From the NCBI RefSeq assembly GCF_001677475.2, contig NZ_CP015229.1: 64,000 nt of DNA, one strand, 5' to 3'. Positions 53,903-57,575 of this stretch are shown piece by piece. The translations under genes were made by a program, and so were the position numbers. The first letter of the stretch is position 1. Each line of letters opens with the position of its first letter. The notes beneath the pieces were generated by a model. That model worked only from the letters and a program-made list of their open reading frames with translations. It was not told the origin of the DNA and searched no databases. Source of the stretch: Escherichia coli (GTDB lineage Bacteria > Pseudomonadota > Gammaproteobacteria > Enterobacterales > Enterobacteriaceae).

Positions 53903-54094
53903 TTAAAGTCCTGCCGGTATTTCGTTATTATTAGTGTGAGTAGTTTTATCTACCGGATAACAGTTACCGGGAATTTTTTGTTCTGCTGCTGCAGCCATGC
54001 ATTCTTTCATTGAACCGTATAAGCCAGTCACCAGCTCAAGAGATTCGCCGGAAACAAGATAAACTGTCAGAACGAGTGCAAATGTTGTATTCAT
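53903..54094 (-). CDS. small membrane-anchored protein (kil-position), unknown function
   Basis: 63 aa with N-terminal hydrophobic helix; start overlaps upstream gene stop (ATGA). Confidence 0.55.
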   Translation of the reverse strand: MNTTFALVLTVYLVSGESLELVTGLYGSMKECMAAAAEQKIPGNCYPVDKTTHTNNNEIPAGL

Positions 54095-54279
54095 TGTTTA
54101 TATCCTTTTTGCAGCAGGTCCAGACGAGCCAGCATTGAAGGAATGCATACTTCATTTAACAGGTCCTGCTCGAGTTTTCTCTGCTTAATGGCGTCTTCAA
54201 TAAATGTTTTGTCTCCAGTGATAACGCCAATTTCGAAACGAAGTTCAGACGTGCTGGCATTACATGATAACTTTTCCAT
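54091..54279 (-). CDS. small hypothetical protein (kil-position)
   Basis: 62 aa from MEKLSCNASTSEL with GAGGA SD 9 nt upstream; the track's 97-aa version lacks an RBS and overlaps an inverted repeat. Confidence 0.55.
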   Translation of the reverse strand: MEKLSCNASTSELRFEIGVITGDKTFIEDAIKQRKLEQDLLNEVCIPSMLARLDLLQKGYKQ

Positions 54280-54296: not shown

Positions 54297-54444
54297 TGAA
54301 TTTTGTGATGCGGTGCCTGGTGCCTCCAGGTGACGTTAACCAGTTAACAATTAACGCAGGATACAGAGAATCCACCCATAACACTGTTTTTGGTTTTTAC
54401 TGTTCCGCGTGCGCTGAGCCGCATTCACCGCATCACAAAATTCA
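54297..54444. repeat. perfect 19-bp inverted repeat pair (tgaattttgtgatgcggtg / caccgcatcacaaaattca) flanking a 110-bp palindrome-rich spacer
   Basis: Arms at 54297-54315 and 54426-54444 checked base by base; spacer contains cctggtgcctccagg and gttaaccagttaac palindromes. Confidence 0.85.
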
Positions 54445-54856
54445 CTTTTAAAAAAGGGCGGCAGAGCAGTCACGGAGTAAAACTGATACCGCCAAATGTC
54501 ACCAGAATATTGATAACAGAGGGCGTTGTAGCGGGGTTGTCACTTAAGCGTATGGTCAACCTGACAACCCGGTGTCCTCAACGGGGAAAGGCGTCCCTCC
54601 CACCCCCGCCATACTTACCGCCGCGCCATTTCGCGGGTCGCCACAACCGGAAGCGCACGGTCGAATTAAATTTAACGACACCGTGCAGTGAGACGAACTT
54701 CGCCGTGCGCTTTCGTGTTGTGTGCCTGCTTTTAACCACGTCAGGCGAGGTGGTTTCCGTCATTCCCCAACGACAGGAAATCTGTATAATCTGGGTATCC
54801 CCAACGATCCAAGGAAATCATATGACAGAGCAAAGAGCACAAGCAGGTGATGGTGT

Positions 54857-55303
54857 ATGGACCGGGATGATATTCTTGACAGAATTTTTTATGGCTATTT
54901 TCTTGAGCAACTGTTTTCTGTAGCGACTGGTCGTCTCGATAAACTTCTCTCAGTAGTGAGTATTATCCTCGGTTCATCTGTCATTGGCGGATTCATTCCG
55001 GAAATTTCTGGCGTTTTTATTGTTGTGATCGCAACCGTCCAAACGATTTATGGATTCGGACAAAAGTCAGGTAATACCATGAGAAAATCCGCAGAATATT
55101 TGCAGCTTTTTGATGATGCAGAAAAATATTCTGATTCGGAATTGAAAATTCAGTTAAAAACTCTGGAAAAAACAGATGATCATATTTGGTCATCACTTAA
55201 AGATATTGCGATCTTAAAAACACAGATCAAAATAGGCGTCTCCATCGAACAACAAGAGAAGTTGCCCACAAAATCCAAATTGATGCGATTTCTTTGTGGT
55301 TAG
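54857..55303 (+). CDS. 2-TM membrane protein on opposite strand at the Rac sieB position; candidate superinfection-exclusion / abortive-infection effector
   Basis: 148 aa, SD AGGTGA 6 nt upstream; two adjacent hydrophobic helices (LSVVSIILGSSVIGGFIP / ISGVFIVVIATVQTIYGF) then charged C-terminal tail; convergent with flanking minus-strand genes. Confidence 0.65.
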   Translation: MDRDDILDRIFYGYFLEQLFSVATGRLDKLLSVVSIILGSSVIGGFIPEISGVFIVVIATVQTIYGFGQKSGNTMRKSAEYLQLFDDAEKYSDSELKIQLKTLEKTDDHIWSSLKDIAILKTQIKIGVSIEQQEKLPTKSKLMRFLCG

Positions 55304-55392
55304 GAATATCCAGATTGTTAAAGAGCATGCCGGAGGTTTATCCGTGTCCGGCGCACGCACTTCATCTGCGGAGAACTACTTGAGCTCATTGG

Positions 55393-55608
55393 TCAGTAGT
55401 TTTCAATCACTCGCGAAACGTTTAATGCCGCGCTTTTTGCCAGAGTGGTAATATCCTGCTCCGCTGACACCAGTTCTTTAGAGAGGCGCTCTTTGTAGTC
55501 AGCGGCCTGCTTCAGGTCATTAATGGCGCGTATCTTTCCGCACATCCATTCGTAAATTTCATCCTCGGTATAGTCTGGTGCGATGATGACGGGTTCTCGT
55601 TTCTGCAT
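55393..55608 (-). CDS. hypothetical protein
   Basis: 71-aa ORF MQKREPVIIAPDYTEDEIYEWM…; hairpin gccggag…tccggc between it and the convergent 2-TM gene. Confidence 0.5.
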   Translation of the reverse strand: MQKREPVIIAPDYTEDEIYEWMCGKIRAINDLKQAADYKERLSKELVSAEQDITTLAKSAALNVSRVIENY

Positions 55609-55637
55609 ACTGATTCCTCGCGGTGCCGCTTCGCTTA

Positions 55638-55766
55638 TCAGCCGTTAGATTTTGCCGAACTGGAAAGCGCCTGTTTAAACTCACTGAAGCTGAGAGCTTC
55701 TTCGCCTTCGGCAAGGTCTTCGAAGTATTCTTCGTAAGCCTTTTCCATGATTGCGTCGAAATCCAT
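55638..55766 (-). CDS. small acidic hypothetical protein (42 aa), ydaF-position
   Basis: Hand translation MDFDAIMEKAYEEYFEDLAEGEEALSFSEFKQALSSSAKSNG; starts 2 nt after stop of upstream gene; not in track (<60 aa). Confidence 0.5.
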   Translation of the reverse strand: MDFDAIMEKAYEEYFEDLAEGEEALSFSEFKQALSSSAKSNG

Positions 55767-55767
55767 A

Positions 55768-56010
55768 TCACTCACCTGAATTTCTTTCCAGCCAGCGACG
55801 AGCGCCAGTTTCGGTTTTAAACGTTTTACTTTTGGTATACGTCATCGCGGTGAATGTGCCGTCCTGGTTGGGAAACACGCCGTACACCAGAGATTCGTTG
55901 TTGCCAAGATCGATAGTATCCATGTTGACCTCATTTCCCCTTAACGCTGGGGTAGCGGAACTAAAAACCTGCTGCGCTGTTATACAAAGTGTTCCCGCCG
56001 TCATGTTCAT
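55768..56010 (-). CDS. small hypothetical protein, ydaG-position
   Basis: 80-aa track ORF; real start may be the internal Met (MDTIDLGNNESL…). Confidence 0.45.
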   Translation of the reverse strand: MNMTAGTLCITAQQVFSSATPALRGNEVNMDTIDLGNNESLVYGVFPNQDGTFTAMTYTKSKTFKTETGARRWLERNSGE

Positions 56011-56126
56011 ACGCCTCGGGCTGGCTACTTAATCCCTGACCACTACCGGGTAACTCTAGGTATTGCCCTGTATTGTGTGGGACGGGATGGGTTGGTATGG
56101 GAAAACTATAGGAAATGCCTAATTGC

Positions 56127-56147
56127 TTGTCAATAGGCTATGCCTAA
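56127..56147. promoter_or_regulatory. operator-like site, downstream copy of 21-bp inverted repeat flanking repressor gene
   Basis: ttgtcaataggctatgcctaa is the exact reverse complement of 56772-56792; additional tgcctaat half-sites at 56114-56124 and 56160-56170. Confidence 0.6.
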
Positions 56148-56241
56148 TGATTTGGGTGCGACCTAATAGGTGATGGTTTGTGGGAGAGGTAGTAGGAGTT
56201 AACTAACGGGAACTAGGAATTTCCCGTCGGACCATATAAGT

Positions 56242-56718
56242 TTAAGTTCCTGTCTTGGTGATGTTCTGGCTTTTCCGTTTTGATTCTTGATTTTTCAGAT
56301 AGTTAGCTACCTTCATTTCCATTGCGGCAATGTAGGCGCGAACGTCATGATCAACCCAACTAGGCTCCGTAGCATTTCCAGATAAGAGGAAAGCCACAAT
56401 TGCTCTTTTTTCATCAGAGGCGGCTTGATAAAGGCTGTTTATGTCTAAAAGTTCACTTTTTGTATCTGAAGTGGATGGGGTTGGTATGGGGTATTCGTTA
56501 AGCCCCCAATGCTCTGGACCAACCACATCAGAAAAGAAACGCCATAGTTCTGGAAGTTTGTCTTTACTTATCGAACCTTTCTTAATCCAGTCATGGATTG
56601 ATGGTGGTTGGACTTTGAAATGACGTGCGATTTCCGCCTTTGATTTGACGGCTCCTGATGCAATTTTTTTGTTAATGGCCTGCTCTATCGCTCGGCCTAA
56701 GTCTTTACCACTAAGCAT
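56242..56718 (-). CDS. prophage repressor, RacR-like (HTH, no S24 peptidase domain)
   Basis: 158 aa with N-terminal HTH (KAEIARHFKVQPPSIHDWIKKG); divergent from Cro-like gene; same length and position as Rac RacR. Confidence 0.75.
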   Translation of the reverse strand: MLSGKDLGRAIEQAINKKIASGAVKSKAEIARHFKVQPPSIHDWIKKGSISKDKLPELWRFFSDVVGPEHWGLNEYPIPTPSTSDTKSELLDINSLYQAASDEKRAIVAFLLSGNATEPSWVDHDVRAYIAAMEMKVANYLKNQESKRKSQNITKTGT

Positions 56719-56771
56719 TGCTTAATAGTCTCCTATGCGCATCGCGTTAGGCAATACCTACTCTCGAAGCG

Positions 56772-56792
56772 TTAGGCATAGCCTATTGACAA
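56772..56792. promoter_or_regulatory. operator-like site in divergent repressor/cro promoter region
   Basis: ttaggcatagcctattgacaa plus neighbouring ttaggca and attaggctaagcctaat near-palindromes between repressor and cro-like genes. Confidence 0.6.
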
Positions 56793-56842
56793 TCACATTA
56801 GGCTAAGCCTAATATTATTGTGTGTTTTTTGGAGTTCATTCG

Positions 56843-57166
56843 ATGAAAAAAGATAACTATTCATTCAAACGAGCTTGTGCTGTTGTCGGTGGGCAATCAG
56901 CAATGGCTAGGCTTTTAGGTGTATCTCCTCCAAGCGTAAATCAATGGATCAAAGGTGTACGTCAGTTGCCTGCTGAGAGATGTCCTGCGATTGAACGAGC
57001 AACAAAAGGTGGTGTCCTGTGTGAAGAACTTCGTCCTGATGTTGATTGGACATACTTACGACGCTCGTCATGTTATTCGCAGAATATGTCGATGAAGCAA
57101 CCAAATGACGAAAACGATCATACCCGAAGCATCAAGAGGCAAATGATTCATGAAAATCAAACATGA
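56843..57166 (+). CDS. Cro-like HTH regulator (YdaS family)
   Basis: 107 aa from ATG with GGAG SD; HTH ARLLGVSPPSVNQWIKGVRQLP; divergent from repressor. Confidence 0.75.
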   Translation: MKKDNYSFKRACAVVGGQSAMARLLGVSPPSVNQWIKGVRQLPAERCPAIERATKGGVLCEELRPDVDWTYLRRSSCYSQNMSMKQPNDENDHTRSIKRQMIHENQT

Positions 57167-57575
57167 GCATATCCGCATGGCGATGAATGCCTGGGCATAC
57201 CCTGATGGTGAGAAAGTTCCTGCAGCTGAAATAGCCCGGACTTATTTCGAACTGGGAATGACGTTCCCGGAACTGTACGACGACAGCCATCCGGAAGCCC
57301 TGGCCCGTAATACCCAGAAAATTTTCCGTTGGCTGGATAAAGACACCCCTGATGCTGTTGAAAAAATGCAGGCTCTGTTACCGGCGATCGAAAAGGCGAT
57401 GCCGCCTTTGCTGGTGGCCCGTATGCGCAGCCACAGTTCTGAGTATTACCGTGAGATTGTCGAACGGAGGGATCGGTTGGTGAAAGATGTCGACGATTTT
57501 GTTGCGTCAGCGGTTGTTTTGTATGACCAGATGAATCGCGGCGGCCCGGCAGGAAATGCCGTGGTGATGCACTAA
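57150..57575 (+). CDS. YdaT-like (CII-like) regulatory protein
   Basis: 141-aa ORF immediately after the Cro-like gene with overlapping start, as ydaS-ydaT in Rac. Confidence 0.65.
   Translation: MKIKHEHIRMAMNAWAYPDGEKVPAAEIARTYFELGMTFPELYDDSHPEALARNTQKIFRWLDKDTPDAVEKMQALLPAIEKAMPPLLVARMRSHSSEYYREIVERRDRLVKDVDDFVASAVVLYDQMNRGGPAGNAVVMH

Follow-up and report, generated by a model that had tools for sequence, protein, structure and literature searches.

[quoted passage not shown] A closer relative of the locus described here is the dicBF operon of the Qin prophage of Escherichia coli K-12, in which ydfA and ydfB, genes of 156 and 129 nt separated by a 1-nt spacer, are followed by ydfC, then DicF, and then dicB. 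Transcription of dicBF begins ahead of ydfA, under repression by DicA (PMC10448788; PMC5069750). When a Qin operon without dicF and dicB, but still carrying ydfABC, was induced, no growth inhibition was seen (PMC5069750). In the Rac prophage, the slot between racR and sieB, an antisense membrane-protein gene, is occupied by ydaG and then ydaF, and these genes are up about 40-fold on RacR displacement (PMC6765115). In published work, both YdfA and YdfB are labelled proteins of unknown function.

The window analyzed here is a stretch of 64,000 nucleotides of E. coli DNA, in which a first-pass annotation had pointed to two adjacent small ORFs near a repressor gene. We are practically certain that these are ydfA, which encodes a 51-aa DUF1391 protein, and ydfB, which encodes a 42-aa protein, and that they are the two leading cistrons in the repressor-controlled early-left operon of a lambdoid prophage of the Rac/Qin type, integrated beside potC. 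Thus, they are prophage genes that have already been catalogued, and are not new.

Results

The features of the locus are as follows, with positions numbered from the start of the window.

54091–54279, minus strand: dicB (cell-division inhibitor), distal in the operon; 62 aa from an internal Met (MEKLSC...)
54456–54507, minus strand: DicF small RNA
54857–55303, plus strand: opposite-strand gene, 148 aa, with a hydrophobic hairpin
55393–55608, minus strand: ydfC-like third cistron, 71 aa
55638–55766, minus strand: ydfB, 42 aa, acidic; translation starts MDFDAIMEKAYEEYFEDLAEGEE...
55768–55923, minus strand: ydfA, 51 aa, DUF1391
55924–55962, minus strand: conserved 39-nt element, AGTTCCGCTACCCCAGCGTTAAGGGGAAATGAGGTCAAC
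55924–56098, minus strand: leader of about 175 nt, from promoter to ydfA, its far end placed from the position of the −10 hexamer
56105–56133, minus strand: putative early-left promoter (PL/dicBp-like), TTGACA-17-TATAGT
56106–56148, no strand assigned: operator-like repeats of the TAGGnnnnnGCCTAA type
56242–56718, minus strand: RacR-type repressor gene

Identity of the two ORFs

YdfA matches the Pfam model PF07151 (DUF1391) with 96.6 bits, where the cut-off is 27.3, covering model positions 1–48 of 48, and 50 of its 51 residues are identical to those of YdfA from K-12 Qin. YdfB is identical to K-12 YdfB at 40 of 42 residues and matches the PHROG profile phrog_2061 with E = 1.1e-25. A scan of NCBIfam gave no model matching either protein. 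The ORFs had been described as unannotated, but RefSeq lists CDSs at exactly these coordinates in the 99.9%-identical strain NZ_CP013662.1, under the names 'DUF1391 family protein' for ydfA and 'protein YdfB' for ydfB. DNA similar to this region is present in 4095 of 5426 complete E. coli genomes. The Pfam and PHROG matches, the purifying selection discussed below, and the conserved spacing are concordant, and the ORFs are far beyond chance.

The length of the upstream ORF had been left at 50–80 aa. The ORF is real, and it has 80 aa if counted from its first ATG (55768–56010), but what is conserved is the 51-aa form beginning at the ATG at 55923. We rejected the 80-aa form because the RefSeq ydfA CDS is 156 nt, the 48 positions of the DUF1391 model align to residues 31–78 of the longer ORF, and the upstream extension (55924–56010) has an in-frame stop in Salmonella loci. 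This extension lies inside the leader and is not conserved as coding sequence. A GAGG Shine–Dalgarno motif (55932–55929) is located 5 nt upstream of the ATG at 55923.

That a 42-aa highly acidic ORF comes right after the upstream stop codon was confirmed, with one base between the TGA of ydfA (55770–55768) and the ATG of ydfB (55766–55764). The junction reads ...TCAGGTGAGTGATATG..., so there is an AGGTGA Shine–Dalgarno-like motif within the 3′ end of ydfA. The 1-nt spacer is found in all 78 of the related loci that are long enough to check; these were found with a YdfA query and are relatives of 96–100% identity, while divergent loci were examined singly. Both the Shine–Dalgarno motifs and the coupling spacer are conserved. 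The tight coupling brought up an obligate complex of YdfA and YdfB, which was rejected since each gene occurs without the other. In Citrobacter and Cronobacter loci, ydfB stands alone straight after the leader, and in Rac, ydaF is present and ydfB is absent.

Promoter, repressor and operon

The order of the early-left operon is ydfA, ydfB, the ydfC-like cistron, the antisense two-membrane-helix gene, DicF, dicB, DUF1482, a RecE-like exonuclease, xis, and int. As in the dicBF operon of Qin, ydfA, ydfB, a ydfC-like gene, DicF, and dicB are on one strand below a repressor-controlled promoter, and the 51-aa DUF1391 protein is encoded by the first cistron after 56105–56133. A promoter-proximal ydfA following the repressor gene is likewise found in Qin and in one Salmonella locus. 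The repressor matches the NCBIfam RacR equivalog model NF049929 with 246.8 bits (cut-off, 200), and RefSeq names the gene racR. The two ORFs had been placed upstream of this gene, but they are actually downstream (3′) of it.

The promoter sequence has 11 of 12 consensus matches and is overlapped by the operator-like repeats, which have a 25-nt spacing. These belong to the repeat family D1 and the inverted repeats I1, I3, and I6, which have partners at 56745–56813. A mirror-image rightward promoter sequence is located at 56786–56815, across the repressor gene from it. From these sequence elements, the strong promoter with its operator repeats just downstream of the RacR-type repressor gene appears to drive the ydfA/ydfB operon.

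The ydfC-like protein matches phrog_1744 with E = 2.3e-27; its first 14 residues are those of K-12 YdfC, and the remainder has diverged. DicF matches Rfam RF00039 with 77 bits (gathering score, 48; E = 4.5e-16), and a dicB CDS is annotated in the near-identical strain. The 148-aa protein of the opposite strand matches phrog_6315 with E = 6.8e-24, and a Pfam scan of it gave no match. It had been read as the product of a gene with two transmembrane segments, and its 40-residue hydrophobic stretch (residues 29–68) is consistent with two membrane helices. In Rac and related loci, the slot of this gene is held by sieB. The earlier placement of the two ORFs on the strand of the repressor gene, between the operator-like repeats and the opposite-strand gene, is correct.

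The leader

Loci of Rac, Salmonella, and Citrobacter have a conserved leader of the same class, and the fold of the leader here is not unusually stable (z = +1.0). The 39-nt element is immediately 5′ of the first cistron, and it precedes whichever gene is first, whether that is ydfA, Rac ydaG, or ydfB alone. The element may form a pseudoknot, with possible pairing of CGCU (55957–55954) to AGCG (55948–55945) and of CCCC (55952–55949) to GGGG (55940–55937). In a check with 11 sequences, the same ones from which the structure was derived, 94.8% of cells were paired and 3 pairs were changed on both sides, compared with ≤51% for slid controls.

Comparison with Qin and Rac

The first-pass annotation had compared the position of the ORFs with that of Rac ydaF/ydaG. 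The slot does match, lying in both prophages between a repressor gene of the same family and an antisense membrane-protein gene, and YdfA is a paralogue of YdaF. However, the exact counterparts are ydfA and ydfB of the Qin dicBF operon. Rac YdaF is itself a DUF1391 protein, with a translation that matches YdfA at most positions, and the first gene in Rac is preceded by the same conserved leader element. In contrast to the present locus, Rac has ydaG before ydaF and has no ydfB; in a comparison of the translations by eye, YdaG (MVHYEVVQYLMDCCGITYNQAVQALRSNDWDLWQAEVAIRSNKM) has no evident similarity or motif in common with YdfB. The locus also differs from Qin. It has a RacR-type repressor gene, TAGG...CCTAA operators, and a leader of about 175 nt, whereas Qin has DicA, a TTAGCCATGGCTAA operator, and a short leader. 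Furthermore, the third cistron has diverged from that of Qin after residue 14, and the antisense two-membrane-helix gene is inserted before DicF.

Composition and predicted fold of the proteins

The 42 residues of YdfB include 11 Asp/Glu and 3 basic residues, giving a net charge of −8.5 and a pI of 4.05, and the conserved acidic positions are E12, E20, E22, E23, and E29. The AF2 model of YdfB has helices at 3–17 and 27–39, joined by the conserved EGEE loop (mean pLDDT 85), and that of YdfA has three beta strands and then a helix (mean pLDDT 77), both models being built on shallow alignments of 26 sequences. Foldseek comparison of the YdfB model with solved structures in the PDB gave no match below E = 2–2.5. 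For the YdfA model, no PDB fold was below E = 0.55, and weak matches to PH domains and to the N-terminal domain of lambda integrase, with rmsd of 4–7 Å, are not meaningful. A PDB sequence-profile search with both families gave nothing significant, and for YdfB nothing with E < 0.5.

The ...EGEEALSFSEF... stretch of YdfB was also read as a possible EF-hand. No register of residues 16–30 fits the 12-residue loop D-x-[DNS]-x-[DNSG]-G-x-[ILV]-x-x-x-E, and this reading was rejected. The sole EF-hand-type match to the YdfB profile, calcium-binding protein p22, is not significant (E = 0.9).

Relatives of YdfB in SP6-like phages

Of 1.84 billion representatives searched with a YdfB profile, no more than 80 matched, all of them short proteins. 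Gp2 of Salmonella phage SP6 and gp54 of phage ACG-C91 align with YdfB over a 28-residue core in which 19 residues are identical (68%), with scores of 35–44 bits; the maximum in 15,000 composition-matched shuffles was 17.8. On this sequence comparison, the relationship of YdfB to SP6 gp2 is apparently new. The gp2 proteins of SP6 and of Vectrevirus/Zindervirus phages (ACG-C91 gp54 and the K1E and K1-5 group) share with YdfB the core Y-E-x-Y-F-x-S-L-x-E-G-E-E-A-L-S-F-x-E-F, and with a net charge of −9 to −10 they are as acidic as YdfB. They are shorter, with a core of 31–33 aa, and are without the N-terminal MDFDAI and the Ser-rich tail of YdfB. Unlike the prophage gene, gp2 is carried by virulent podophages. 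Counting annotated genes from the left end of the genome, it comes first or second, 0.9–1.1 kb from that end, upstream of ocr, which is a few genes on, and of the phage RNA polymerase gene.

Discussion

The proposed expression of ydfA and ydfB is drawn from the sequence together with what has been published on the Qin and Rac prophages. In this scheme, the RacR-type repressor would bind to the TAGG...CCTAA operators that overlap the near-consensus promoter at 56105–56133. Relief of repression would yield a transcript with a leader of about 175 nt, and ydfA and ydfB would be the first genes to be turned on. Translation of ydfA would then start from the GAGG Shine–Dalgarno motif, and that of ydfB would occur by termination–reinitiation coupling, since there is only 1 nt between the two genes.

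What is the function of YdfB? We tentatively suggest that it is an immediate-early, non-toxic binder or inhibitor of a conserved enterobacterial protein, either a host factor or a defence protein, and not a regulator of lysogeny; this suggestion is more apt to be wrong than right. YdfB would be a compact, very acidic helix–loop–helix, in which an aromatic core (Y11, Y14, F15, F27, and F30) displays the conserved acidic E-G-E-E loop. Among the annotated early genes of the SP6-like virulent phages, the first or second would encode a member of the same family, and YdfA would be a separate, optional module. Note that the position of gp2 beside ocr is guilt by association, and nothing on the YdfB motif or on the functions of SP6 early genes turned up in the literature searched. 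Taking identity, expression, and mechanism as a whole, we consider this the best explanation, with about an even chance of being correct throughout. It is doubtful, though conceivable, that YdfB, SP6 gp2, and their relatives constitute one family of acidic helix–loop–helix proteins of about 30–45 aa, expressed at or close to the onset of the early programme in temperate lambdoid and virulent SP6-like phages of enterobacteria alike, that neutralize a conserved DNA-binding protein of the host, either a defence or a nucleoid protein, perhaps as nucleic-acid mimics.

Both frames are under purifying selection, which for ydfB refers to the core compared between genera. For ydfA, pN/pS is 0.10, and the segregating sites number 2, 5, and 20 by codon position, so that 20 of 27 are at third positions. 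In the core of ydfB, dN/dS between genera is 0.05–0.27, at synonymous divergence up to about 1; among close E. coli alleles pN/pS is 0.39, without an excess at third positions, so a clear constraint is confined to the core and to comparisons between genera. This lack of third-position bias would be expected if the frames were untranslated or decaying remnants kept only for their DNA or RNA, for example as part of the DicF precursor, and in the literature searched there is no protein-level detection of YdfA or YdfB, only ydfA mRNA having been shown. However, the strong selection on ydfA, the constraint on the ydfB core, the conserved Shine–Dalgarno motifs and 1-nt coupling spacer, and the retention of the YdfB protein motif in unrelated phage genomes, whose DNA is not retained, make such remnants extremely improbable. 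Conservation of the frames among homologous prophages was a test that the first-pass annotation had set for its own refutation; both ORFs are conserved, so the refutation fails. If the proteins are made, one or both could instead regulate phage development, standing in for lambda N or cIII, for example by promoting transcription through into the distal genes dicB, exo, xis, and int or by shifting the choice between lysis and lysogeny. From textbook knowledge of lambda, ydfA and ydfB are in the slot of N, and like N, Ral, and cIII they are leftward-operon genes under an immunity repressor. In terms of annotation names, neither the prophage nor its near-identical RefSeq copy has a product called an N homologue, and there are long untranslated stretches and an antisense gene for transcription to cross in the operon. 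The YdfA model, a three-stranded sheet with a helix, is compatible with nucleic-acid binding, although its matches to the integrase N-terminus are weak and non-significant. On the other hand, a Pfam scan gave no similarity of YdfA or YdfB to N, Ral, or cIII, no arginine-rich motif is apparent in either protein by eye, and YdfB is unlikely to bind RNA or DNA because it is acidic. Either gene is absent from some otherwise similar operons, and homologues of YdfB are found in the strictly virulent SP6-like phages, which have no lysogeny switch. We consider a regulatory role of this kind unlikely.

The acidity of YdfB also brings up the idea of the first-pass annotation, DNA mimicry or anti-restriction; like Ocr and ArdA, YdfB would imitate DNA to inhibit type I restriction–modification and thereby protect incoming or induced phage DNA. 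The charge of −8.5 over 42 residues with conserved acidic positions, the place of ydfB among the first genes expressed, and the SP6-like homologues a few genes upstream of ocr are in keeping with this, as is the non-toxicity expected of an anti-restriction factor. T7 gp5.9 is a DNA-mimicking acidic helical dimer of about 50 aa (PMC9836394). Like YdfB, T7 Ocr, T7 gp5.9, and lambda Gam are small, helical, strongly acidic, and not toxic, but this is a resemblance of possible action and not membership, since they have no sequence or fold similarity to YdfB; gp5.9 is a parallel coiled-coil dimer (PMC9836394) and not a helical hairpin of the kind predicted for YdfB. Comparisons by Pfam, NCBIfam, PDB sequence, and predicted fold gave no likeness of YdfB to Ocr (PF08684), ArdA, or any solved mimic. 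Moreover, its six aromatic residues, with an apparent hydrophobic core, would leave only a small acidic surface. The SP6-like phages with a YdfB-like gene already carry an ocr-like gene, which would make another inhibitor of type I enzymes superfluous, and we find a mimic of this type quite improbable. The small size of the proteins and the location of their genes in an early operon among the division inhibitors DicF and dicB would suit takeover peptides that kill the host, for instance by blocking its division or transcription in the manner of Kil, DicB, or T7 gp0.4, and a filamentation screen (PMC6206680) showed enrichment of a region in which ydfA, ydfB, and ydfC accompany dicF and dicB. 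However, dicF and dicB fully explain the toxicity and filamentation caused by Qin, and the double deletion that retains ydfABC grows normally (PMC5069750). Host killing is thus largely refuted and very unlikely. A Rho inhibitor should be toxic in K-12. Inhibition of Rho was set aside as a mechanism because there is no toxicity from the operon once dicF and dicB are removed.

As a find, ydfA and ydfB are ordinary, being catalogued genes of the well-studied dicBF/Rac immunity region, found in roughly three quarters of complete E. coli genomes. The link to a left-end early gene beside ocr in SP6-like phages leads to a concrete and cheap hypothesis, that YdfB acts immediately early to inhibit a host factor or defence system. 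Should this hold, a silent prophage gene that is widespread would have a role in counter-defence, and phage engineers would have a very small factor of this kind. If the family neutralizes a host DNA-binding defence or nucleoid protein, it would be among the smallest known anti-defence proteins, silent in most E. coli genomes.

In an ASKA overexpression screen, ydfB was among the candidates for peroxide and hypochlorite resistance, a listing that does not indicate a specific function. The names ydfA and ydfB are also mentioned in papers on IncI1 and IncK plasmids, and we assume that these belong to a separate gene-naming scheme for plasmids.

Identity of the reading frames

The ORFs were listed and the sequence was read over window positions 54800–57200, and three successive minus-strand ORFs were found at the locus:

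55768–56010, minus strand: upstream ORF (ydfA), 80 aa counted from the first ATG
55638–55775, minus strand: ydfB ORF, 42 aa if read from the ATG at 55766 and 45 aa with a GTG start
55393–55608, minus strand: third ORF, 71 aa

The 42-aa product of ydfB, MDFDAIMEKAYEEYFEDLAEGEEALSFSEFKQALSSSAKSNG, has 3 basic and 11 acidic residues, with a pI of 4.05 and a net charge of −8.5. At the ydfA/ydfB junction (...AAT TCA GGT GAG TGA T ATG GAT...), a single base separates stop from start, and a Shine–Dalgarno-like AGGTGA for ydfB falls within the 3′ end of ydfA. The ORF listing, the charge, and the junction sequence thus bear out the first-pass annotation's description of the ORFs, apart from minor wording.

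The upstream ORF is a member of DUF1391 (Pfam, 96.6 bits; cut-off 27.3). The 48 positions of the Pfam model match residues 31–78 of the 80-aa ORF, so the family starts at an internal Met. The 80-aa form was therefore rejected in favor of one of 51 aa, on this alignment and the RefSeq start. The corresponding ATG at 55923 has GAGG 5 nt before it, and Salmonella loci have an in-frame stop within the upstream extension. Other prophages carry the sequence found here upstream of ydfA in front of very different first genes, which shows that it is a non-coding leader.

Similar DNA is present in 4095 of 5426 complete E. coli genomes, and strain 08-00022 (NZ_CP013662.1) is 99.9% identical across the full query (megablast). 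Although the two ORFs had been taken as unannotated, RefSeq places a 156-nt CDS, 'DUF1391 family protein', in that strain exactly at window 55768–55923, and a 129-nt CDS, 'ydfB: protein YdfB', exactly at 55638–55766. The K-12 prophage Qin has ydfA, ydfB, and ydfC with lengths and a 1-nt spacer that match those seen here, and its proteins are nearly those of the window (YdfA, 50/51 identical; YdfB, 40/42). Rac of K-12 encodes a DUF1391 paralogue, YdaF, whereas its YdaG is a different sequence with no evident motif in common with YdfB. The proposed positional analogy to Rac ydaF/ydaG is correct, then, but the genes truly correspond to ydfA and ydfB of Qin. These are two known, annotated prophage genes at their expected place, an ordinary finding; the original observation is confirmed, and its interpretation is supported in part. 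All three proteins match PHROGs families of unknown function (phrog_751, phrog_2061, and phrog_1744).

Immunity region and leader

The following features surround the two genes:

56242–56718, minus strand: RacR equivalog repressor gene (246.8 bits; cut-off 200)
56133–56105, minus strand: predicted early-left promoter, TTGACA-17-TATAGT (promoter scan, 11/12 matches)
56786–56815, plus strand: predicted mirror promoter, TTGACA-18-TAATAT (promoter scan)
55924–55962, minus strand: 39-nt leader element, also in comparison loci L002, L003 (K-12 Rac), L084–L089, and L092
54857–55303, plus strand: antisense 148-aa gene with a 40-residue hydrophobic hairpin (phrog_6315)
54456–54507, minus strand: DicF RNA (77 bits)

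Beyond the repressor gene lie divergent ydaS-like and ydaT-like genes. TAGG...CCTAA repeats with 25-nt spacing overlap both predicted promoters and make inverted repeats across the repressor gene. As read from the sequence, the predicted promoters and operator-like repeats have the classic lambdoid immunity-region layout. The genes had been placed upstream of the repressor gene; instead they sit downstream of it, with their own promoter, and are the predicted first cistrons of a leftward early operon with a putatively repressor-controlled promoter. In Qin, transcription of dicBF begins upstream of ydfA under repression by DicA, and ydfA mRNA is detectable (PMC10448788); in Rac, displacement of RacR raises ydaF and ydaG about 40-fold (PMC6765115; PMC11014345). 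DicF is followed by dicB, a DUF1482 gene, a RecE-like exonuclease (823 aa), xis, and int, and potC adjoins. Between DicF and dicB there is a sub-threshold Rfam match to STnc100 at 54302–54442 (minus strand; 28.7 bits, gathering score 47, E 0.004). The antisense gene has no match to a Pfam family; it fills the slot held by sieB in Rac-like prophages, possibly as a superinfection-exclusion analogue. The 13-nt sequence GGGTTGGTATGGG is repeated exactly, in direct orientation, at 56089–56101, at the predicted early-left transcription start, and at 56478–56490, within the repressor gene.

The 39-nt element lies directly 5′ of the first cistron. It is almost invariant in E. coli, Citrobacter, Cronobacter, Salmonella, and Rac loci, and it is kept regardless of first gene or promoter type. 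Its sequence would permit a small pseudoknot (CGCY/RGCG and CCCC/GGGG) ending 4 nt before the Shine–Dalgarno motif, which we offer as a lead only. In 11 distinct sequences, the same from which the structure was derived, 94.8% of cells pair, as against at most 51% in slid controls. Three pairs, in stems of only 3–4 bp, are altered on both sides in this set, and the compensatory changes come from one Citrobacter and one metagenomic locus. Taken as a whole, the leader shows no unusual stability (z = +1.0). Transcripts of ydfA are reported to be lost in an RNase III mutant (PMC10448788), which may or may not be connected to the leader element.

Conservation of the two proteins

Among close relatives, the 80 IMG/VR loci retrieved with YdfA, the gap between ydfA and ydfB is exactly 1 nt in all 78 that could be checked. 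The pN/pS of ydfA is 0.10, with 2/5/20 variable sites by codon position (27 unique alleles), and that of ydfB is 0.39, with no third-position excess (24 alleles). For the YdfB core (codons 7–35), dN/dS is 0.05–0.27 at synonymous divergence up to about 1 in a set from E. coli, Citrobacter, Cronobacter, Salmonella, and one metagenomic locus. M7, Y11, E12, Y14, F15, A24, S26, and F27 are invariant, and the E-G-E-E loop almost so. Lack of conservation in homologous prophages, named beforehand as the point against these frames, is not what we find: by selection, spacer, and invariant residues, both are conserved as proteins. Because the 29-aa variants P0064, P0068, P0075, and P0090 run from the equivalent of Met7 to ...QAVS, comparison of the sequences suggests that the functional core of YdfB is residues 7–35, as in the podophage versions. 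In four IMG/VR loci, the 3′ end of ydfB after ...FKQAL is swapped for ...RIRM..., a mosaic recombination boundary within the gene tail that fuses ydfB to a frame of 130–190 aa that has a CxxC motif and is probably phrog_35040. The third cistron is identical to K-12 YdfC for 14 residues and divergent thereafter, another mosaic joint inside a small gene.

Each gene also occurs without the other. Citrobacter and Cronobacter prophages have ydfB directly after the leader, without ydfA, and Rac has ydaF without ydfB; thus, the tight coupling does not imply an obligate YdfA–YdfB complex. The upstream repressor varies among loci (RacR-type, DicA-like HTH_3, or S24 CI-like). In Rac, ydaG (L003 5323–5457, minus strand) takes the first-gene slot; YdaG has no evident similarity to YdfB, and its ...ITYNQAVQALRSNDWDLWQAEVAI resembles, by eye, a UBA/TS-N-type helical motif.

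Structure models and podophage relatives

The AlphaFold2 model of YdfB has helices at 3–17 and 27–39 joined by a loop at 18–26 (mean pLDDT 85), and that of YdfA has strands at 15–18, 24–27, and 32–35 and a helix at 38–48 (mean pLDDT 77). Among solved structures, neither model had a significant match by fold, and neither family had one by sequence profile. The DUF1391 matches listed are from Escherichia, Shigella, and Salmonella, with at least 78% identity. Searched with a YdfB profile, 1.84 billion representative proteins gave only 80 matches, all short, with the common core Y-E-x-Y-F-x-S-L-x-E-G-E-E-A-L-S-F-x-E-F. One distant member, P0275, is encoded on an SP6-like podophage contig, where its gene comes first after about 1.2 kb without a called gene, with ocr about 800 nt downstream. 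By tblastn of GenBank phages, the motif is present in SP6, ACG-C91, K1E, and many Vectrevirus genomes, typically 0.9–1.1 kb from the left end, with an ocr-like gene and the gene for RNA polymerase downstream of it:

L096 (SP6), 998–1099: gp2, YdfB motif (tblastn)
L095 (ACG-C91), 860–997: gp54, YdfB motif (tblastn)
L090, 4001–4129: YdfB-like

YdfB and podophage proteins share 19/28 identities (BLASTP). Three podophage proteins score 35–44 bits with a prophage-only YdfB profile, and the maximum for 5000 composition-matched shuffles of each is 17.8, so a composition artefact was rejected. In SP6-like podophages, the gene for the YdfB-like acidic protein comes first or second among the annotated early genes; for K1E and the temperate Cronobacter phage phiES15, at least one GenBank/RefSeq record has no annotated feature under the match. 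We found no mention of this link in the literature searched, and the kinship of YdfB with left-end early genes of SP6-like phages is apparently unreported. That kinship and the function of both genes are what remains of interest.

Possible functions

YdfA, YdfB, and YdfC have been described as small proteins of unknown function (PMC5069750), and YdfD is the only operon gene characterized besides DicF and DicB (PMC10448788). A host-killing role is argued against by the Plac-driven Qin operon, which does not inhibit growth when it lacks dicF and dicB but retains ydfABC (PMC5069750). An overexpression screen that placed ydfB among oxidant-resistance candidates is uninformative. YdfB is acidic, compact, and non-toxic, is predicted to come on at or close to the onset of the early program, is conserved among phages of differing lifestyles, and lies near ocr in podophages. 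From these points we tentatively infer, as the best-supported mechanism, that YdfB would act at the immediate-early stage by binding and inhibiting a conserved enterobacterial protein, for example a defense or nucleoid factor.

The narrower version proposed at first, in which YdfB would counter type I restriction by mimicking DNA, has a precedent in T7 gp5.9, an acidic helical dimer of about 50 aa that can mimic DNA (PMC9836394), but we consider it improbable, as ocr is already present in the same podophage early regions and a second such protein would be less economical. The occurrence of YdfB in virulent phages speaks against an N- or cIII-like regulatory role for it; for such a role, YdfA is still a possible candidate.
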